Positions 2,764 to 38,360 of a stretch of DNA of 41,571 bases are shown here, piece by piece. Source of the DNA: a virus; the UHGV virus genome UHGV-0131723; one strand, written 5' to 3'. The notes under the pieces are model-generated. The model ran no database searches. It was not told where the DNA came from and saw nothing but the letters and a program-made list of their open reading frames with translations. Position 1 is the stretch's first letter. Each line of letters starts with the position of its first letter. The translations under genes and the position numbers were made by a program.

Positions 2764-2776
2764 ACAGATACTATAG

Positions 2777-2801
2777 GGGAACTGTAAAGGTTCCCTTTTT
2801 A
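2777..2801 (+). terminator. Rho-independent terminator
   Basis: GGGAAC-TGTAAAG-GTTCCC hairpin followed by TTTTT. Confidence 0.65.
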
Positions 2802-2814
2802 TTTTGGAGGTAAA

Positions 2815-3330
2815 ATGTACCTGTCAAACCTGAAACGTTCGGTTGCAATGTCAGTTCTAAGACTCAGCTTTGATGAGCGTCAAGAGTTTATAGACTCCCA
2901 CAAATATGACCCTTCAAATTCTAATCACATGGTTCTTTGGAATCGTGATAACTTCCGTGAAAGAGCACTTGTCCGTTATTACCCACACTACACAATAGAT
3001 AACCTGTATGAATGGTGTGTTGTGAAGAACACCATTGCAACACTGAACAATCTTTGCAGGTATACTGGTAAGCAAACATTTACATTAGGTCATCACAAAC
3101 CTGTTACAAAAGGTGGTGAACATCACTGTGCAAACTGGTTTATCCAAACTAAAGCTGATAACCAGAAGCAAGGAGATAGCCTCCTAAGTATCCCTAAGAT
3201 GACCTATGAAGAGCAAGAGAAATATATCAAAAATAATATGCCAGATGTGCTTGACAACAACTATACAGATTTGGCAATATCTCTCCTGTTGAAGTTCGAG
3301 ACAGTTTATAGGGCAACTTATAATGGCTAA
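2815..3330 (+). CDS. Putative HNH-family endonuclease
   Basis: GHHKPVTKGGEHHCAN matches the HH-x-P-x3-GG-x5-N HNH core; GGAGG RBS upstream. Confidence 0.55.
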   Translation: MYLSNLKRSVAMSVLRLSFDERQEFIDSHKYDPSNSNHMVLWNRDNFRERALVRYYPHYTIDNLYEWCVVKNTIATLNNLCRYTGKQTFTLGHHKPVTKGGEHHCANWFIQTKADNQKQGDSLLSIPKMTYEEQEKYIKNNMPDVLDNNYTDLAISLLLKFETVYRATYNG

Positions 3331-3601
3331 AGAAAAGTGGGAGATTTTACCATTAGTCAGTGAAGGAGGTAATGGTTGTGAGATGTACATGATACGTGGT
3401 CATGTTCCAGAACCAATTGCACTTGAGATGGTAAACAACTTTACAGATGGTTCTTACAAAGACTTAGGAGAGCCAACTATAAAGCAGCAATGGGTAAAGC
3501 CTGTACCAGACAGCACAGGTAACTGTAGTGTACTTTACCACGTTGTAGACCCTGTAAAATGCAAATCTGCAATGGCAGTAACAAACGTAACTTTTGATTG
3601 A
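3323..3601 (+). CDS. Hypothetical protein
   Basis: ORF track; overlaps upstream stop. Confidence 0.45.
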   Translation: MAKEKWEILPLVSEGGNGCEMYMIRGHVPEPIALEMVNNFTDGSYKDLGEPTIKQQWVKPVPDSTGNCSVLYHVVDPVKCKSAMAVTNVTFD

Positions 3602-3612
3602 GAGAGAAAACT

Positions 3613-4494
3613 ATGAAAACATCTATCCGTGTTACAGTTCATTCACCAGCTAAGGGGACTCATGAAGAAGAGTTTAACATCGTCCAATTCCCTTCTGGTG
3701 AGATTGGTGGACACTTTTCACCAGAGTTTGTTGATTTTACTGCTTATGCTACATCATCCATCAACAACGTGATTATGATTGTAAAGGGTTATGACAAAGA
3801 CACATTATTTGCTGTGGCACTTGCTAAAGAAGCAATTGATGATTTAATTCCTCATGATTATGCTTTAAAGACTGTCATCTTTTACTACTTACCAAATGCA
3901 CGATATGACCGTCACATGTTTAAAGGTGACGCAGCAGCTTTAAAGGTTTTTGCTAAACAGATTAATGCAATGGGATTTGGCGCAGTCTGTGCAGTTGACC
4001 CTCACAGCTATGTACCAGATAACCTGTTTAACTGCTTCCAGAGTATTCCTCAAAAGGAGATTGCAGTCCACTATGCAAATGACCCACTGGTTGATTACTT
4101 AGTAGCCCCAGATGCAGGTGCTGCTAAGAAGGTTGCAGAGACCGCTAAAGAGGTAGATAAACCATATATCACAATGTCTAAGGTTCGCAATCTTAAGACT
4201 GGAGAAATCACTGGTATGCGAATCCTTGACGATGTTGATTTGACCGATAAAACTGTCATGATTCTTGATGATATCTGTGATGGTGGTCGAACCTTCGTAG
4301 AGGCAGCTAAACACCTACGTGAAGCAGGTGCAAAACGTGTGGAACTCTATGTAACTCATGGTATTTTCTCTAAAGGTGTTGAAAACTTACTTGACAACGG
4401 TATTGACCATATCTACACTACAAACACTTTAGGTGAAGCTAAAGACCGTGGCTTAACACATTACGGTCAAGTGACTGTAGCAACCATTGATTAG
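3613..4494 (+). CDS. prs: Ribose-phosphate pyrophosphokinase-like phosphoribosyltransferase
   Basis: Type I PRTase PRPP-binding loop VMILDDICDGGRTF; ~293 aa; ORF-track TTG start replaced by ATG at 3613 after GAGAGAGA RBS. Confidence 0.7.
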   Translation: MKTSIRVTVHSPAKGTHEEEFNIVQFPSGEIGGHFSPEFVDFTAYATSSINNVIMIVKGYDKDTLFAVALAKEAIDDLIPHDYALKTVIFYYLPNARYDRHMFKGDAAALKVFAKQINAMGFGAVCAVDPHSYVPDNLFNCFQSIPQKEIAVHYANDPLVDYLVAPDAGAAKKVAETAKEVDKPYITMSKVRNLKTGEITGMRILDDVDLTDKTVMILDDICDGGRTFVEAAKHLREAGAKRVELYVTHGIFSKGVENLLDNGIDHIYTTNTLGEAKDRGLTHYGQVTVATID

Positions 4495-4502
4495 GTAACA
4501 GT

Positions 4503-4994
4503 ATGAATAAGGGTTATTTTGAAAGATACCTAATATATGAACCAGATACAGGTTTATTAATTTGGAGAGTAACCCTTTGCAGTACCGCTATTGCTGGTAA
4601 TGTGGCTGGCACAAGGTCTAAGAAGGGTTATATCCAAGTCCAGATAAATAAGAAGAGGTACTATGCACATAATATTGCATGGATTATGTCTGGAGGTGAG
4701 ATACCAAGTGGATATGAGATAGACCACATAGACCTTGATAAATCTAATAATAAGTTGGATAATTTAAGACTTAGCACAAAGTCACAAAATCAGAGGAATA
4801 GGGGTATATACAAGAATAATAAAACTGGTGTGAAGGGTGTAAGTTTTTGTAAACAAACAGGTCTTTACAAAGCAAGAGTCATGCTTTACCATAAAGAATA
4901 CTTTTGTGGAAGATTTAAAACGGTAGAAGAAGCAAAAGAAGCTGTAATTAAAAAGCGAATAGAACTTCATGGTGAGTTTGCAAGACATAACTAA
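4503..4994 (+). CDS. HNH homing endonuclease with AP2-like DNA-binding region
   Basis: GYEIDHIDLDKSNNKLDNLRL is an HNH core (H..N..N); C-terminal part resembles AP2-type domain; inserted between prs-like and nadV-like genes. Confidence 0.7.
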   Translation: MNKGYFERYLIYEPDTGLLIWRVTLCSTAIAGNVAGTRSKKGYIQVQINKKRYYAHNIAWIMSGGEIPSGYEIDHIDLDKSNNKLDNLRLSTKSQNQRNRGIYKNNKTGVKGVSFCKQTGLYKARVMLYHKEYFCGRFKTVEEAKEAVIKKRIELHGEFARHN

Positions 4995-5012
4995 GAGAGA
5001 GAGAGATAAAAT

Positions 5013-6794
5013 ATGAGTAAGTCACTTTACGCAGTACCAGCAGGTCTTAATGCAGATGCTTACAAGGCATCACATATATATCAGTATCCAGATGCTACGC
5101 AATATCTTATGTTGAACCTGACACCACGCAGTGATAAATGGTTTAACAGCCCCTTAGCAATTGATGGTGTAGTAGCTTTTGGTATTCAACGTTTTGTTAA
5201 AGATTACTTGATAGACCACTGGAATGCCACTTTCTTTGAACGTGATAAAAAAGAAGCAATTGACGAAATCTTAGAAGTCATGAATGGTGTTCTGGGTAAA
5301 GATGCTATCGGTAGAGAGCATTGGGAAGCACTTCACGACTTAGGTTATCTACCAGTTGAAGTATACGCTGTAGAAGAAGGCACAGTTGTCCCTATGCGTG
5401 TCCCAATGATTGTTTTCCAGAACACTGTTTCAGGTTTCCATTGGGTAGCAGGTTATCTGGAAGATGCTTTCTCTGCTGAGATTTGGAAGGCTTGTACCAT
5501 TGCAACTATTGCATTGCATTACAAACGCATCTGTAAGAAGTGGGCTGACCTTACTTGTGACAACGACTTGCATCTGCCCTATCAGTGCCATGACTTTGCT
5601 ATGCGTGGCATGTCAGGCTTTACTGATGACGCATTTAATGCTGTAGGTCACTTAACCAGCTTTAAAGGAACTGATAGCTTCCCTGCTGTATACACGGCTA
5701 AACGCATTTATGGGCAGTCTTACCCAATCTCTGATATTGGTAGCTCTGTACCAGCCACTGAGCACTCTGTAATGTGTGCAAACATTGCTTGGGAAGGTGG
5801 TAATGAGTTGATTGAAGAAGAAAGACGCTTTAAAGGTGAGTTACAAACCTTCCGTCGTTTCTTAACAGAAACTTACCCAACTGGTATTGCAAGTGTTGTT
5901 TCAGACACTTATAACTTCTGGAGAACTGTGTCAGAAATTTTACCAGCACTTCGCAAAGAGATTATGGGACGTGACGGTAAACTGGTAATTCGTCCTGACT
6001 CTGGAGACCCTGTACATATTGTCACAGGTTATAAAGCAATCCACTTAGAATGTGCTAAGAAGGCTTATTACGAGCACCTAAGCAAGCTGGAAGCCAGTGA
6101 CACAATGTTGAATGCTGTTCTGAACATGAAGCTTGAGAACATCAACTATGGTATTGCTGGATGGCTACTGTCAGAAGGCTACGAGATGGTTGTTGACAGA
6201 GAAGACTTTGAAGTTGCTGATACAGTGATGTTGAAAAATGCTTATATGGTTGGTTCTGCAAACGTTGTAACACGTCCTGTAGCTGAGATTGATGGAGCTA
6301 TTAAGACACTGTACAACATCTTTGGGGGAACTATTAACTCTAAAGGCTTTAAAGTACTGGATGAGCATATTGGACTTATTTATGGCGACTCTATCACGTT
6401 GGAACGTGCAAATGAAATACTGAAGCGTTTGTATGAAATGGGTTTTGCAAGCTCTAACGTAGTGTTTGGTGTAGGTTCTTACACTTACCAGTACATGACT
6501 CGTGACACCTTTGCATTTGCTGTCAAAGCAACCCTTGCAAGCATTGGTGGTAAAGAGATTATGCTTGCAAAAGACCCTAAAACAGATAGTGGTGTTAAGA
6601 AGTCTGCTTTTGGTGGTGTAGCACCTATGTGGGATGGTGAAAATCTGAAAGCTGTAGATGGCTATGGGTTCCAGAGCTTTGCAGATGCACTTGAACATCC
6701 AGCTTGTGCTTTACGTCTAGTCTTTAGCGACTCTGAGCAGTTCGGCTACACAACTCTTGGTGATATTCGAAATAATATTGACAAGCAGCTTTAA
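5013..6794 (+). CDS. nadV: Nicotinamide phosphoribosyltransferase (NadV/NAMPT-like)
   Basis: 593 aa; N-terminal YKASHIYQYP region and overall size recalled as NAMPT family. Confidence 0.8.
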   Translation: MSKSLYAVPAGLNADAYKASHIYQYPDATQYLMLNLTPRSDKWFNSPLAIDGVVAFGIQRFVKDYLIDHWNATFFERDKKEAIDEILEVMNGVLGKDAIGREHWEALHDLGYLPVEVYAVEEGTVVPMRVPMIVFQNTVSGFHWVAGYLEDAFSAEIWKACTIATIALHYKRICKKWADLTCDNDLHLPYQCHDFAMRGMSGFTDDAFNAVGHLTSFKGTDSFPAVYTAKRIYGQSYPISDIGSSVPATEHSVMCANIAWEGGNELIEEERRFKGELQTFRRFLTETYPTGIASVVSDTYNFWRTVSEILPALRKEIMGRDGKLVIRPDSGDPVHIVTGYKAIHLECAKKAYYEHLSKLEASDTMLNAVLNMKLENINYGIAGWLLSEGYEMVVDREDFEVADTVMLKNAYMVGSANVVTRPVAEIDGAIKTLYNIFGGTINSKGFKVLDEHIGLIYGDSITLERANEILKRLYEMGFASSNVVFGVGSYTYQYMTRDTFAFAVKATLASIGGKEIMLAKDPKTDSGVKKSAFGGVAPMWDGENLKAVDGYGFQSFADALEHPACALRLVFSDSEQFGYTTLGDIRNNIDKQL

Positions 6795-6808
6795 AAGTAT
6801 ATGATAAG

Positions 6809-6831
6809 AGGCTCCTACGGGAGCCTTTTTA
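6809..6831 (+). terminator. Rho-independent terminator
   Basis: AGGCTCC-TACG-GGAGCCT followed by TTTTT. Confidence 0.65.
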
Positions 6832-6847
6832 ATTTCTGGAGAAGATT

Positions 6848-14297: not shown

Positions 14298-15077
14298 ATG
14301 GGTATTGTAAAAGTTGTAAAAGGTAACTTACTGGCTGCCTTCAAAAACACAGATATTGAGTTAATTGCTCATGGTTGCAACTGTCGTAACCTCATGGGTG
14401 CTGGAATCGCTCAAAAAATTGCTAAGATTTTCCCAAAAGCTGAAGAAGCTGACCGGAAATTCCATAAAAAGTTTGGCTACAGTGCTCATGATATCGGATA
14501 CCAGATGGTTGGTGAGGTGTCACATGCTCGAACGGAGTATGGTTACATTTTTAACCTATATACACAGTTGGATGTTGGGAAGTGTGCATCATACCGATAC
14601 TTAGTGGAGTCACTAGAAAAACTCCGTAAATTTTGCTGGCTGCACAACATTCGTAAGATTGGTTTACCCATGATTGGGGCAGGTATAGGCGGTTTAGATG
14701 CACAAGCTGTGAAAAGCCTCATTAATAGTGTTATGTATAACGTTGATGTGTACCTCTACGTCTATGATGAAGCAATGGCAAGTGTAGTTACCCCTAAGTA
14801 TGCTACCTCAGCACCACAATTCTATGATGGTGTCGTGCTAAGTGACGGGAAGACTAATCAAGTTACCCTCTATCAGCTTGTTGATGGCAAGGTTGAGGTT
14901 AGTTACCCTCTGGTTAGTGAGATGGGTATGTGTAACAGTGAAATGTTCCCAGTTGACCCGTTTGGAAGATATGAAGGGGTGTTCTTTGATAACTACCCAG
15001 CAGCATACATCTACACAACAAATCAGGATGAAGTTCACTACTTGCTGTATTCTAAAAAGTTCAAATTCATAAGCTGA
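14298..15077 (+). CDS. Macro-domain-like protein (possible ADP-ribose binding/processing)
   Basis: N-terminal IAHGCNCRNLMGAGIAQ resembles the macro-domain glycine-rich ADP-ribose loop; assignment by memory only. Confidence 0.5.
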   Translation: MGIVKVVKGNLLAAFKNTDIELIAHGCNCRNLMGAGIAQKIAKIFPKAEEADRKFHKKFGYSAHDIGYQMVGEVSHARTEYGYIFNLYTQLDVGKCASYRYLVESLEKLRKFCWLHNIRKIGLPMIGAGIGGLDAQAVKSLINSVMYNVDVYLYVYDEAMASVVTPKYATSAPQFYDGVVLSDGKTNQVTLYQLVDGKVEVSYPLVSEMGMCNSEMFPVDPFGRYEGVFFDNYPAAYIYTTNQDEVHYLLYSKKFKFIS

Positions 15078-15474: not shown

Positions 15475-15565
15475 TGACTCTTTGAGTGTGGTTATCTAAT
15501 ATTTGCATCAACGGGGAGGGAATGACCTTCCCCACTAAATAAAGTCCTAAACTGGGGATTCAAAA
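15475..15565 (+). promoter_or_regulatory. Type A cassette: promoter + 5' hairpin + RBS
   Basis: TTGACT-N17-TAATAT, then ATCAACGGGGAGGGAATGACCTTCCCCACTAAATAAAGTCCTAAACTGGGGATTC before ATG. Confidence 0.6.
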
Positions 15566-15949
15566 ATGGCTTATCGTGCACCTAAATTCATCAACAAAGA
15601 CAACTTTCGCAACGCACTGGAGAAGTCACTTGATGCAAATTTTAAAGGTAACATTATCATTGTTCACGCATTCAATTTTAAGTATGATGTAAACGGGAAT
15701 AGAATCAACCATTACACGGCAACCATGTTAGATGGTACTCTTTCAAGTGAAAAAGCCATTTTACATGCACTTGCTGGACGTGGTAAAAACCTGATAAAAT
15801 GTGATAAGAGACGTTATCAGGGTGGCGCATATGGTTATGATGATGCTGTTTATCATCTTGAAAATATGGGCTATAAAGTAGAAAAAGCTGGAGTGTCTCA
15901 AATAATCGGTAGTGATGGTTATGTAACTATCTTCAAAATTAACAAATAA
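15566..15949 (+). CDS. Hypothetical small protein (cassette array)
   Basis: ORF track; ATG after cassette RBS; C-terminus ...KINK*. Confidence 0.55.
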   Translation: MAYRAPKFINKDNFRNALEKSLDANFKGNIIIVHAFNFKYDVNGNRINHYTATMLDGTLSSEKAILHALAGRGKNLIKCDKRRYQGGAYGYDDAVYHLENMGYKVEKAGVSQIIGSDGYVTIFKINK

Positions 15950-35697: not shown

Positions 35698-35772
35698 GCA
35701 TCCATAGTTTAAACGGGAAAATTACAGTCTTCCAAACTGAGGTTGAGGGTTCGATTCCCTCTGGATGCTCCA
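35698..35772 (+). tRNA. tRNA-Gly (UCC)
   Basis: Acceptor GCATCCA/TGGATGC; loop CTTCCAA; T-arm GAGGGTTCGATTCCCTC. Confidence 0.7.
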
Positions 35773-35778
35773 AACAAT

Positions 35779-35855
35779 GCTGCTTTCGTATAATTGGCTA
35801 TTACACATCCCTTGTAAGGATGGAAATGCAGGTTCGAGTCCTGTGAGCAGCACCA
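35779..35855 (+). tRNA. tRNA-Thr (UGU)
   Basis: Anticodon stem CATCC/GGATG, loop CTTGTAA. Confidence 0.7.
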
Positions 35856-35950
35856 ATTCAGAGGCCAAGTGAAAGACCGCTGGTGTCAACTGAAGACCGT
35901 AACAAATTCCACGGAGTTGAGTTAGCGGCACAACTTCAGACCTCTTTCAC

Positions 35951-36025
35951 ACTCGCTTAGTTTATATGGTAAAACATCACCCTTACAAGATGAAGAAAAA
36001 GGTTCAAGTCCTTTAGTGAGTACCA
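35951..36025 (+). tRNA. tRNA-Val (UAC)
   Basis: Loop CTTACAA; T-arm AAAGGTTCAAGTCCTTT; CCA encoded. Confidence 0.6.
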
Positions 36026-36026
36026 T

Positions 36027-36104
36027 GTTCCAGTATCCCAATTGGCAGAGGATGCAAGCTCAAACCTTGTACTAGTGACGGTTCGAATCCGTCTTGGAAC
36101 ACCA
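36027..36104 (+). tRNA. tRNA with CAA anticodon (Leu by code), short variable arm
   Basis: Anticodon stem GCAAG/CTTGT, loop CTCAAAC; discriminator A; 78 nt. Confidence 0.5.
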
Positions 36105-36109
36105 ATTTT

Positions 36110-36185
36110 GCAGGATTAGTTCAAATGGATAGAGCAACAGTCTACGAAGCTGTTAATAGGGGTTCGAATCCCTTATCCTGCGCCA
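36110..36185 (+). tRNA. tRNA-Arg (ACG)
   Basis: D-arm GTTC/GAGC; loop CTACGAA; CCA encoded. Confidence 0.7.
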
Positions 36186-36203
36186 GATAAGCAAGAGGAA
36201 TTT

Positions 36204-36446
36204 ATGCAAACATTAATCGTCGTTGAACATGAAAATCCCAATAGTATTGAGTTTGTAAGGGTTCCCACTATAGATACCCACATTTTCTTGAAAGTCGGAT
36301 GGGAATGCGACCCAATAAAAGTAGAAAGATTTATTGGTCATTGCTTTGGTGGAAGACAACTTAAAAGCATCAATTTTGAGACAATGTTACCAGAAAGCTC
36401 AGAAACAAATAATAATGCTTACCTCCTTACGAGGGTTAGACAATGA
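36204..36446 (+). CDS. Hypothetical protein embedded in tRNA cluster
   Basis: ORF track; AGAGGAA RBS. Confidence 0.5.
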   Translation: MQTLIVVEHENPNSIEFVRVPTIDTHIFLKVGWECDPIKVERFIGHCFGGRQLKSINFETMLPESSETNNNAYLLTRVRQ

Positions 36447-37000
36447 GATACTTAAAATATGTTTCATGGATTTTCTTAGCTTTGTTAGAACCATTTGCAG
36501 CAACCCTAGCAGTCATCTTAGCACCTTTCGTAGTTCCATCCTACAGTGAGAAGAAAGGACACTTACCTTTCGGGTTCAGATGGATGGAGACCTATGACAA
36601 CCCAATTGATGGTGATGAAGGTCACGTTAAAAGATGGGCTAATATTAGATGGATTGGTAAGCTGGGTGTCTACATGCAGAGAGTTGGATGGCTCTGGAGA
36701 AACAAAGCTTATAACTTCTCTTACCATGTATTAGGAAGAGATGTAAAAGATGTTACTAAGTGGAAAGGTAATATCAACGTAAGTTCTGACCCCGAAGATA
36801 ATCAGACAGGTTATCTCCTAATGTGGAACAGTAATGCTTGGGGATTATTCGCTTTTATCCCATCAATTAAAATCTTTGGTAAACAATTTTACTGGAGAAT
36901 TTATATTGGATGGAAACTAAAAAGTGTTGTCCCAGAAGAAAGAGCATTCTCAAGGGAAAGAGTTATGTTGGCATTCTTTATTCATCCACTGAGAAAGTAA
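36443..37000 (+). CDS. Hypothetical membrane protein embedded in tRNA cluster
   Basis: ORF track; N-terminal hydrophobic segment; ATGA overlap with upstream ORF. Confidence 0.5.
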   Translation: MRYLKYVSWIFLALLEPFAATLAVILAPFVVPSYSEKKGHLPFGFRWMETYDNPIDGDEGHVKRWANIRWIGKLGVYMQRVGWLWRNKAYNFSYHVLGRDVKDVTKWKGNINVSSDPEDNQTGYLLMWNSNAWGLFAFIPSIKIFGKQFYWRIYIGWKLKSVVPEERAFSRERVMLAFFIHPLRK

Positions 37001-37008
37001 AGATTTAA

Positions 37009-37084
37009 AGGGGATTAGTTTACAAGGTTAAAACCTCGGTCTTTGAAATCGAAGAAGTTGGTTCAATTCCAACATCCCCCGCCA
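37009..37084 (+). tRNA. tRNA-Gln (UUG)
   Basis: Loop CTTTGAA; T-arm GTTGGTTCAATTCCAAC; 1:72 A-C mismatch. Confidence 0.65.
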
Positions 37085-37086
37085 AT

Positions 37087-37165
37087 GCTCCATTACTCCA
37101 ATTGGCAGAGAGGCCAGACTTAAAATCTGTGTTATGTATCGGTTCGAATCCGATATGGAGTACCA
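37087..37165 (+). tRNA. tRNA with UAA anticodon (Leu by code), short variable arm
   Basis: Loop CTTAAAA; T-arm ATCGGTTCGAATCCGAT; discriminator A; 79 nt. Confidence 0.5.
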
Positions 37166-37170
37166 AATTT

Positions 37171-37246
37171 AGCGGTATAGCATAACTGGCAATGCAGCAG
37201 CCTCTGAAGCTGTCCTATTAAGGTTCAAATCCTTATGCCGCTGCCA
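37171..37246 (+). tRNA. tRNA-Gln (CUG)
   Basis: D-arm GCAT/ATGC; anticodon stem GCAGC/GCTGT, loop CTCTGAA. Confidence 0.65.
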
Positions 37247-37277
37247 CTTCTAAGGATTCTTGCGAGAGTCCTTAAAT

Positions 37278-37353
37278 GTGGCCTTATCATAAATGGTAAT
37301 GACCCATGCTGTGAACATGGTCTATACGGGTTCAAATCCCGTAGGTCACCCCA
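37278..37353 (+). tRNA. tRNA-His (GUG)
   Basis: Anticodon stem CCATG/CATGG, loop CTGTGAA; discriminator C. Confidence 0.7.
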
Positions 37354-37359
37354 ATTTAT

Positions 37360-37435
37360 AGTCCAAGTAGCTTATATGGTTAAAGCGCGTGTCTGAAAAA
37401 CATGAGAAGAGGGTTCAAATCCCACTGGACTACCA
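37360..37435 (+). tRNA. tRNA-Phe (GAA)
   Basis: D-arm GCTT/AAGC; anticodon stem CGTGT/ACATG, loop CTGAAAA; acceptor register uncertain by 1 nt. Confidence 0.55.
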
Positions 37436-37451
37436 ATTTCAAAGGTGCTTA

Positions 37452-38186
37452 ATGAAAGAGATGACAGAACAAGGTAAGGAGATTTTTAATCTCTTAAAAA
37501 CCGGTAAAGGGTTCTCTAACCCACTTATTACTGGTGCAGCAGTTCTCGGTGGAACCGTAGCTGCTTCTACATCACTTGTAAGCTCTATTAGTTCTGTAAC
37601 AGACCCTACAATGAAGGAGAAACTTGTTGCTGCTGGACTTACAACAGTCCTTCTAAACAGCTTTACAACAAGCCTGACAAGCACTACAGCAACTACTAAG
37701 ACCCTAACAGAATATGGTCAAAAGTCTATTGATGAGTTTTCATCACGTATGCAGGTAGCAAAGGGATACTCCAATGTTATGGGTGCAGCAGGAGAACAAG
37801 TTGGTTGTACACCATTCAGTGGTATTATGGGTGTTGCTACAGAATATGGTCAAAAAGCTATTGACATGATGAACAGTACACTAGATAGTGTTAATGGTGT
37901 GTTAAGTGACTTACAAGATGCTATTGACAAAGGTCTTGATACTATTTCTGATTTAGCTAACCAAGCTGTTAGTAAGATTAATGAAGGTATTTCGAAGATT
38001 ACAGCTTATGCAGATGAAGTTGTGCAGATGATTGAAGAAGAAGCTGCTCTTATTGCAGAGTACCTTAAAACGAATATCAATGGGTTCTTAGCAGGTATCT
38101 TACCAGACTGGTTTGATGATGCTTGTAAAACTGGTGTGATTGACACTATTGCAACACCAGAAATGAAGAACGCATTACAGAAATAA
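37452..38186 (+). CDS. Hypothetical protein with internal repeat
   Basis: ORF-track GTG start at 37389 lies inside tRNA-Phe; first ATG after AAAGGTG RBS is 37452; repeat TEYGQKSIDEF.../TEYGQKAIDMM... Confidence 0.5.
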   Translation: MKEMTEQGKEIFNLLKTGKGFSNPLITGAAVLGGTVAASTSLVSSISSVTDPTMKEKLVAAGLTTVLLNSFTTSLTSTTATTKTLTEYGQKSIDEFSSRMQVAKGYSNVMGAAGEQVGCTPFSGIMGVATEYGQKAIDMMNSTLDSVNGVLSDLQDAIDKGLDTISDLANQAVSKINEGISKITAYADEVVQMIEEEAALIAEYLKTNINGFLAGILPDWFDDACKTGVIDTIATPEMKNALQK

Positions 38187-38187
38187 T

Positions 38188-38280
38188 GGAAGATTAACCC
38201 TAAAAGGTAAGGGAGCAGTTTGCTAAACTGCCAGTAGCTGAGAAATCGGTGTACCAGTTCAAGTCTGGTATCTTCCTCCA
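38188..38280 (+). tRNA. tRNA-Ser (GCU), long variable arm
   Basis: 93 nt; anticodon stem GCAGT/ACTGC, loop TTGCTAA; T-arm ACCAGTTCAAGTCTGGT. Confidence 0.7.
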
Positions 38281-38284
38281 ATTT

Positions 38285-38360
38285 GAATCCGTGACAGAAA
38301 TGGCTATGTGCCTGTCTGCAAAACAGGTTTATAAGGGTTCGAGTCCCTTCGGATTCTCCA
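38285..38360 (+). tRNA. tRNA-Cys (GCA)
   Basis: Anticodon stem CCTGT/ACAGG, loop CTGCAAA; discriminator U; CCA encoded. Confidence 0.7.

Follow-up and report, generated by a model that had tools for sequence, protein, structure and literature searches.

The NAD+ reconstitution pathway NARP1 was discovered by deleting genes 79 and 80 of the Felixounavirus Bas63, a deletion that sensitised the phage about 20-fold to the SIR2-HerA defence (Osterman et al., bioRxiv 10.1101/2024.02.11.579819). In Bas63, the operon brings back NAD+ and the ability to plate on SIR2-HerA hosts and does not require host pncC or nadR for this, and ADP-ribose pyrophosphate (ADPR-PP) was seen only in defence-expressing cells infected by wild-type Bas63, that is, when both the operon and the defence were present (bioRxiv 10.1101/2024.02.11.579819). 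The chemistry of the two enzymes, Adps and Namat, has been studied in vitro with other homologues: Adps of SPbetaL1 turns ADP-ribose (ADPR) plus ATP into ADPR-PP and yields no Prs-type product (bioRxiv 10.1101/2024.02.11.579819), Namat of SPbetaL1 converts ADPR-PP to NAD+ and prefers ADPR-PP over phosphoribosyl pyrophosphate (PRPP) (bioRxiv 10.1101/2024.02.11.579819; PMC12774641), and Adps of ICP1 also converts ADPR and ATP to ADPR-PP, with release of AMP (PMC13586617). In 97% of the Adps clade, a Namat gene lies within 10 genes. Here we report the analysis of a NARP1 locus in a 41,571-nucleotide (nt) stretch of the virus genome UHGV-0131723 (the window, hereafter), in which an HNH endonuclease gene stands between adps and namat.

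An earlier note on the window had described a Prs-like and a NAMPT/NadV-like gene in the same orientation, possibly encoding an NAD+ reconstitution pathway and split by a homing endonuclease. The three open reading frames (ORFs) that it placed at this locus are intact, lie on the same strand and contain no internal stops:

3613..4494, + strand: adps (Prs-like), 293 amino acids (aa), the first NARP1 enzyme
4503..4994, + strand: HNH endonuclease ORF, 163 aa, 492 nt
5013..6794, + strand: namat (NAMPT-like), 593 aa, the second NARP1 enzyme

The spacers between them are short, with 8 nt from the adps stop to the ATG of the endonuclease gene and 18 nt from the stop of the latter to the namat ATG. 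A longer adps ORF would start from an alternative TTG at position 3598; all annotated relatives use the ATG equivalent to 3613. The 4.4-kb region shares 94-96.5% nt identity with more than 200 annotated Felixounavirus genomes that have the same gene calls, and the pattern of the locus is therefore far beyond chance. Judged by its sequence, the window is part of a Felix O1-like phage (Ounavirinae, Felixounavirus).

Both enzyme assignments of the earlier note hold, as supported by Pfam and by orthology to genes 79 and 80 of Bas63 (the BASEL phage JohannRWettstein, MZ501086). Gene order and protein lengths (293 and 593 aa) are the same in Bas63 and in the window, and the identities of 79% for Adps and 97% for Namat make the pair NARP1 proper, in agreement with the proposed two-enzyme reconstitution of NAD+. 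Furthermore, the supplement of the original study already lists two phages with the endonuclease gene (HNH+ phages), Felix O1 and Mushroom, under Adps and 'Adps-associated' Namat, and the Adps and Namat gene indices given there are two apart, as in the endonuclease-carrying arrangement. On the basis of the Bas63 orthology and this listing, adps and namat of the window are identified as the already known NARP1 operon (Adps + Namat), whose arrangement here is ordinary for Felix O1-like phages. Each sequence-testable feature of NARP1 Adps and Namat was found at the locus, except that the residues of the PP loop and of the adenine contacts are mixed; one such feature of Adps is a Namat gene within 10 genes, and here namat starts 519 nt downstream of adps with only the endonuclease gene between them. 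Taken together, we are highly confident that a Felix O1-like phage carries its NARP1 operon at this locus, with a selfish free-standing homing endonuclease gene in the intercistronic spacer.

By analogy with the characterized systems, a host NADase defence (e.g., SIR2-HerA, DSR1/2, or type I Thoeris) would cleave NAD+ to ADP-ribose and nicotinamide during infection. Adps (3613-4494) would then move the beta,gamma-pyrophosphate of ATP onto the terminal ribose of ADP-ribose, giving ADPR-PP, and Namat (5013-6794) would exchange the pyrophosphate of ADPR-PP for nicotinamide, giving NAD+ directly and allowing phage replication to go on. The endonuclease gene (4503-4994) is predicted to have no part in the NAD+ chemistry and to be a mobile element that rides on the operon transcript. 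We infer that the window proteins carry out the same reactions as their counterparts in Bas63, SPbetaL1, and ICP1.

Adps and Namat compared with canonical Prs and Nampt

The Prs-like protein of the window matches the Pfam families Pribosyltran (1.4e-11) and Pribosyl_synth (3.1e-10), and its PRPS-like fold is covered by PDB matches to Prs that span aa 14-285; the search of PDB returned no solved Adps structure. The PRPP loop VMILDDICDGGRTF quoted in the earlier note is located at aa 215-228. With the window Adps as query, the match to ICP1 Adps (37% identity) reached 119 bits and that to E. coli Prs 63 bits. All NCBIfam Prs equivalogs were missed by 2-8 fold, the best being NF002095 with 107.2 against a cut-off of 296, and the broad TIGR01251 subfamily was the sole Prs model passed (123.5 against 113). 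Names from Pfam, PHROGs, and NCBIfam do not split Adps and Namat from Prs and NadV, and among these results only the failure at the Prs equivalog cut-offs is informative. Membership in the Adps clade was judged from the identity to Bas63 Adps, which is a seed of that clade, from pairwise scores, this equivalog failure, and the supplement listing of the near-identical Mushroom protein.

To compare functional residues, Adps was mapped onto ICP1 gp228 (UniProt F1D1Q1), the numbering of which agrees with PMC13586617 for each of the 16 residues given there. The residues tested in ICP1, R87, H121, D161, K185, D212, and D213, are all kept, as R97, H131, D167, K190, D219, and D220 of the window protein, where K190 corresponds to the catalytic hairpin lysine (ICP1 K185, SPbetaL1 K162). 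The catalytic and acceptor residues are also found in canonical Prs, and therefore show competence rather than specificity. In ICP1 Adps, the PP loop C215-S220 is remodelled and residues F18, F92, F221, and F223 contact the adenine (PMC13586617). The window protein keeps the DDICDG motif at the start of the PP loop (D219-D220-I-C-D223-G) and the phenylalanine F228, and has G225-R226-T227 at the place of ICP1 A218-A219-S220. The window and Bas63 proteins are identical at 17 of the 17 mapped functional positions, and their catalytic C-terminal 113 aa (aa 181-293) are 100% identical.

The N-terminal half of adps (window 3613-4150, codons 1-180) is dimorphic among Felixounaviruses. One type, starting with MKTSIRVT, occurs in the window, Mushroom, and O157 typing phage 8, and the other, starting with MKTVIEAV, in Bas63, Felix O1, tootiki, and BPS15Q2. 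The two types share 60-64% nt and 66% aa identity, with up to 100% identity over the C-terminal 113 aa, which looks like a recombination mosaic within an anti-defence enzyme. A link between this dimorphism and the endonuclease was rejected, as both alleles occur with and without the endonuclease gene.

Namat of the window matches the Pfam families NAPRTase (2.3e-34) and NAMPT_N (9.3e-6), and its scores were 432 bits against the solved SPbetaL1 Namat (9w5w/9w5x), 180 bits against Xcc Nampt (7yqo), and 146 bits against mammalian NAMPT. The specificity of Namat has been attributed to a 'selectivity clamp' formed by a loop and by a helix with two extra aromatic residues, F392 and Y396 in SPbetaL1; in the loop, Arg, Lys, or Tyr occupies the third position, and either the third or the fourth residue is a stacking one (PMC12774641). 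In the window protein, Y490 and Y494 of the helix GSYTYQY align to these two aromatics, where Xcc Nampt has Ala and Lys, and the third and fourth residues of the loop S40-D41-K42-W43 are Lys and Trp, as has been described for Namat of Bas63. The catalytic H251 is present in PATEHS, and R327 in VIRPDSGDP corresponds to R306 of SPbetaL1. The preference for ADPR-PP and the direct formation of NAD+ would carry over to the window protein. Namat of Ounavirinae also has two insertions relative to SPbetaL1/9ke8 Namat and Nampt, both shared with Bas63: one of about 77 aa (aa 351-427, window 6063-6293), which cuts the Pfam NAPRTase match in two, and one of about 15 aa (aa 258-272, about 5784-5828).

The earlier note held that sequence alone cannot tell Adps and Namat from Prs and NadV. 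This was too pessimistic, since orthology, the clamp residues, the failure at Prs equivalogs, and the Namat score do separate them, and the comparison with canonical enzymes that it had proposed favours Adps and Namat over Prs and Nampt for both proteins. In the corresponding alternative explanation, the genes would form a canonical salvage pair, the first enzyme making PRPP from ribose-5-phosphate and the second making nicotinamide mononucleotide (NMN) from PRPP and nicotinamide, with host NadR and PncC completing the synthesis. The database names, ribose-phosphate pyrophosphokinase and nicotinamide phosphoribosyltransferase, agree with such a pair, as do the passed TIGR01251 subfamily and NF006629 equivalog models, and Namat homologues still make NMN from PRPP in vitro. 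However, the Bas63 orthologues protect without host pncC and nadR, with ADPR-PP detected and no NMN route, and the SPbetaL1 result, the missed equivalogs, and the Namat-type clamp described above speak against it as well. Among the 52 other ORFs of the window we found neither an NMNAT (CTP_transf_like) nor a Nudix protein, the remaining ~45 kb of the genome lying outside the window. We thus regard the salvage pair as extremely unlikely, and annotate the locus as Adps and Namat of the NARP1 anti-defence pathway with an intervening homing endonuclease gene, as opposed to the Prs/NadV salvage enzymes named in nearly all GenBank relatives. The correct label bears on predicting the escape of therapeutic Felix O1-like phages from NAD+-depleting defences such as SIR2-HerA, DSR, Thoeris I, and SEFIR. 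Nothing new is added here to NARP1 biology itself; the modest new points are population-genetic and concern the endonuclease and, besides, an unlinked, rapidly diverging Adpp-like Macro gene described below.

The endonuclease gene and its insertion site

The ORF between adps and namat matches Pfam HNH_3 over the full profile (2e-19, aa 53-98) and phrog_99 (5e-68). An additional AP2 match (20.9 bits, E 4.6e-4) does not reach the gathering score of 33.3; AP2/ERF is likewise mentioned in the annotation of Mushroom. On these matches, the product is a free-standing homing endonuclease with a putative AP2 DNA-binding domain and a predicted catalytic activity. No paralogues of this gene were found elsewhere in the window. 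The possibility of a disguised Macro or RyR accessory protein was considered and found no support in Pfam or PHROGs.

The element is present, in one copy each, in 62 of about 260 related phage records, in 27 of which it is at least 99% identical; about three quarters of the close relatives, including Bas63, lack it (HNH- phages). The carriers span three genera, namely Felixounavirus (including Felix O1), Suspvirus (phiSUSP1), and Mooglevirus (Moogle and Mijalis), and the gene is always at this junction; sister phages without it include Bas63 and SUSP2. Between the window and ULIM3 or Mushroom, the endonuclease gene is 99.6-99.8% identical and the flanking adps and namat 92-96%, and between the window and phiSUSP1 it is 90.7% identical and adps 75.6%. 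A gene more conserved than its flanks, which has crossed genera with a short flank tract, bears the sequence signature of recent horizontal spread.

To define the insertion, the junctions were compared between 10 HNH+ and 10 HNH- genomes by coordinate anchoring, and the boundaries proved identical. The features of the window involved are as follows:

4492..5012, + strand: homing-endonuclease insertion, consisting of the TAG stop variant, the 8-nt spacer, the HNH ORF, and the GA-rich spacer
4995..5012, + strand: GA-repeat ribosome-binding spacer of namat, which HNH+ and HNH- alleles have in common and which bounds the insertion on the right
5013..5117, + strand: allele tract at the namat 5' end linked to the homing endonuclease gene, with codon 2 AGT and 'allele A' at nt ~31-102

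In HNH- genomes, the adps stop TGA or TAA is followed by AACTTTATA-GGGGCTT-NAAA-AGCCCC-ATTTT and then by GAGAGAGATTAAAAG-ATG. In HNH+ genomes, the stop is TAG, followed by 8 nt, the 492-nt ORF, and the GA-rich spacer common to both alleles. The displaced segment is a hairpin that folds at -11.5 to -12.6 kcal/mol in HNH- alleles and is gone in the window; the AYO145A annotation calls it a rho-independent terminator. Comparison of the two junction types indicates that about 30 nt were replaced and that neither flanking gene was harmed. The insertion site that the earlier note had hoped to obtain from endonuclease-less relatives is thus defined as this intergenic hairpin segment, and its description of a 'split' pair is correct as to the position of the endonuclease gene between the two others, but not as a disruption, because both genes are full length and the hairpin alone was replaced. 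The spacer 4995-5012 contains (GA)6 in the window versus (GA)4 in most HNH+ relatives, which looks like slippage at the insertion boundary.

One could suppose that the insertion is polar, so that NARP1 is crippled in the window phage and the operon is a decaying remnant, given that the intercistronic hairpin has been replaced and that 0.5 kb of a foreign ORF now parts adps and namat. We consider this the least probable of the alternatives. Neither gene is truncated or lacks any of the key residues, the GA-rich ribosome-binding spacer of namat is kept, a consensus scan with folding revealed no terminator-like site between adps and namat in the window, and the arrangement is stably kept in 62 genomes, including that of the type phage Felix O1. 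The endonuclease gene itself probably relies on the operon transcript, since just 8 nt lie between the adps stop and its ORF.

The 5' end of namat differs between the two groups of genomes. Allele A (nt ~31-102) and the codon 2 AGT occur in 10 of the 10 HNH+ genomes, and allele B, which differs from A at about 22 of 72 positions, in 7 of the 9 HNH- Felixounaviruses, Bas63 and O157 typing phage 8 among them (Fisher p = 0.0023, for lineages that are not independent). Across genera, namat nt 1-65 are 95-97% identical to the window, compared with 78% for the bin that follows. A co-conversion tract on the upstream side was rejected, as the last 65 nt of adps are 71-77% identical across genera. The linked alleles and the one-sided rise in namat identity suggest that the mobile unit consists of the endonuclease gene and the namat 5' end. 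During co-infection, the endonuclease would cut genomes lacking its gene within or close to the namat 5' end, and repair would copy the gene in along with the first ~65-105 nt of namat (co-conversion); the target or immunity site is most likely in the namat 5' end. Two HNH- phages, EC6 and tootiki, carry allele A (1541-1645 of the compared stretches) with the stop codon, hairpin, and codon 2 of endonuclease-less genomes; they could represent precise loss of the homing endonuclease gene, partial co-conversion, or cleavage-resistant alleles.

Presence or absence at one site, conservation above that of the flanks, and the linked namat tract bear out the homing event suggested by the earlier note. 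We found no published experimental report of the endonuclease cleaving an allele without its gene, or of its preferential inheritance; what has been described is limited to insertions and deletions. As a different explanation, the HNH-AP2 protein might not, or no longer, be selfish, but be a domesticated accessory or regulator of NARP1 in the slot that is taken elsewhere by the Macro protein Adpp or by RyDEP. Working accessory genes do occur in NARP1 operons, either between adps and namat or next to them, AP2 domains bind DNA sequence-specifically, and 62 genomes carry the gene in intact, conserved form. We find domestication very unlikely, given that about three quarters of the close relatives do without the gene, among them the validated Bas63 with its working pathway, that the gene exceeds its flanks in conservation and has passed between genera along with a short flank tract, and that phrog_99 and the other homologues are HNH homing endonucleases across thousands of unrelated phages and sites. 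In three Ounavirinae genera, a selfish homing endonuclease would have settled in the intercistronic spacer of an anti-defence operon, dragging the 5' end of namat along.

Several points weigh against the reading of the locus as a NARP1 operon with a selfish endonuclease. Bas63 Adps could not be purified, and the in vitro chemistry comes from homologues that are 33-37% identical to the window Adps. Residues 1-180 of the latter share just 66% identity with Bas63, and the ICP1 adenine contacts F18, F92, and F223 are replaced by H17, M102, and E230 in the window, as they are in Bas63. SPbetaL1 Namat still forms NMN from PRPP (bioRxiv 10.1101/2024.02.11.579819; PMC12774641), and because of this residual activity a secondary role in salvage is possible. 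With regard to the endonuclease, its insertion removes a terminator-like hairpin between adps and namat, which may affect the Adps:Namat expression ratio, and the candidate cleavage site is derived solely from linkage across 19-20 phylogenetically non-independent genomes.

Neighbouring genes and an unlinked Macro-domain protein

The following features border the operon in the window, the promoter-like and terminator-like sites being obtained by consensus scan:

2775..2797, + strand: terminator-like hairpin with a 9-bp stem and a T-run, which probably closes the preceding transcription unit
2815..3330, + strand: conserved ORF, 171 aa (phrog_3500, 4.4e-93), overlapping the next ORF
3323..3601, + strand: conserved ORF, 92 aa (phrog_4726), ending 11 nt before adps
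6778.., + strand: promoter-like site TTGACA-16-TATGAT (11/12), overlapping the namat stop
6806-6829, + strand: terminator-like hairpin, forming the downstream unit boundary (region 6778..6829)

The order of the two upstream ORFs is kept in Bas63, phiSUSP1, and SUSP2, and they may be co-transcribed with adps. The ORF at 2815-3330 has a weak HNH-like match (phrog_2214, 2.3e-6, motif GHHKPVTKGGEHHCANW) and no match in Pfam. Both ORFs were considered as known NARP1 accessories and rejected, as they gave no Pfam or NCBIfam match and fell into PHROGs of unknown function, apart from that weak HNH-like match. Downstream, a promoter or a terminator is annotated at the place equivalent to 6778-6829 in ASO1A, AYO145A, and Tribble. 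A 345-nt ORF (bas63_0081; 15509-15853 in the compared relative) follows namat in Bas63, ULIM3, CL1, and Tribble and is absent in the window (6795-6847), constituting another small presence/absence polymorphism beside NARP1.

One further gene of the window encodes a protein of a type known from other NARP1 operons:

14298-15077, + strand: Macro-domain protein of the Poa1p/OARD1/Adpp type, 259 aa, with a Pfam Macro score of 28.9 bits, above the gathering score

It is the sole Macro protein in the window, and about 15 genes, or about 7.5 kb, separate it from NARP1, which lies upstream. The protein has an extra C-terminal domain of ~100 aa, its relatives in PDB include OARD1 and the yeast ADPR-1''-phosphate phosphatase Poa1p, and it is homologous, with shared conserved motifs, to the operon-embedded Macro protein of Vibrio phage ABurr (E 6e-14) and to that of Pseudomonas phage JG005. 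Its identity to the positional counterpart bas63_0095 is 41%, in spite of a genome identity of about 92%; few records have the window allele, which is at least 95% identical in 13 records and about 41% in all other Felixounaviruses. The published survey of NARP1-AP, the variant with a Macro phosphatase, scanned two genes on either side of NARP1, and its tables include no Felix-like phage (bioRxiv 10.64898/2026.01.28.702374); an Adpp acting in trans would have been missed by such a scan. Within two genes of adps and namat in the window there is no Macro protein, the neighbours being the HNH endonuclease, phrog_3500, phrog_4726, phrog_4262, and phrog_3931.

A bolder reading, which we regard as doubtful, would have a dispersed three-enzyme NARP1 with the Macro protein acting in trans and, separately, an endonuclease that targets the namat 5' end and shuffles anti-defence alleles across three genera. 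The Macro protein would then serve as an ADPR-1''-phosphate phosphatase or as another enzyme that processes ADPR derivatives and feeds Adps. It should be noted, however, that T4-like phages without NARP1 commonly have this Macro family too. If the bolder reading were true, the Macro protein would extend the reach of NARP1 to defences of the aRES type, and the deep divergence of its two alleles would record an ongoing arms race.

Elsewhere in the window, 25 tRNA genes are clustered at 33206-38360 (+ strand), as in other Felix O1-like phages; one of them, a tRNA-Arg(acg) at 36110-36185, lies where megablast finds no match in Bas63. Felixounavirus-type NARP1 loci with 79-96% identity were also found in MG065664 and MG065668 ('Campylobacter phage A132/A126') and in GU169904 ('Staphylococcus phage SA1'), which are probably contaminant or mislabelled public records.

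Comparison with known systems

The closest described system, NARP1 of Bas63 (bas63_0079/0080), shares with the window the genus, position, flanking genes, protein lengths, and all mapped functional residues. It differs in that its spacer of 45 nt holds a hairpin instead of an endonuclease gene, and in having the alternative allele of the Adps N-terminus, the alternative allele of the namat 5' end, and the extra ORF 0081 after namat. Felix O1 (AF320576 / NC_005282) and Mushroom (KP143762) have the same adps-HNH-namat order, the endonuclease gene of Mushroom being 99.8% identical to that of the window; the differences of Felix O1 are allelic only, with 89.8% identity of the endonuclease gene and an Adps N-terminus of the Bas63 type. 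In its intergenic position, transcription with the neighbouring genes, presence/absence polymorphism, and co-conversion, the predicted element resembles the Seg and Mob homing endonuclease genes of T4-like phages (e.g., SegG and MobE). Its arrangement of HNH_3 with an AP2-like domain differs from the nuclease families of Seg and Mob, and homing in the Felix O1-like phages is a prediction.

Namat of SPbetaL1 (9w5w/9w5x; PMC12774641) and Adps of ICP1 (PMC13586617) are similar to the window proteins in their folds, catalytic residues, clamp helix aromatics, and DDICDG loop. SPbetaL1 Namat differs in the absence of the insertions seen in the window protein and in its clamp loop, which has Arg40 versus Lys-Trp in the window. 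In NARP1-AP of Vibrio phage Gary, an extra gene likewise stands between adps and namat, giving the order Adps, Macro phosphatase Adpp, and Namat (bioRxiv 10.64898/2026.01.28.702374), and in Vibrio phage ABurr the same slot holds a Macro gene; in the window, in contrast, this slot is occupied by the HNH endonuclease, and the Macro gene is elsewhere. Finally, NARP2 (NadV/Nampt with NMNAT; Vibrio phage KVP40) is similar in that an enzyme of the NAMPT fold keeps NAD+ up in infection. NARP2 uses PRPP and needs an NMNAT partner, which is absent from the 52 other ORFs, whereas the partner of the NAMPT-like enzyme in the window is Adps.

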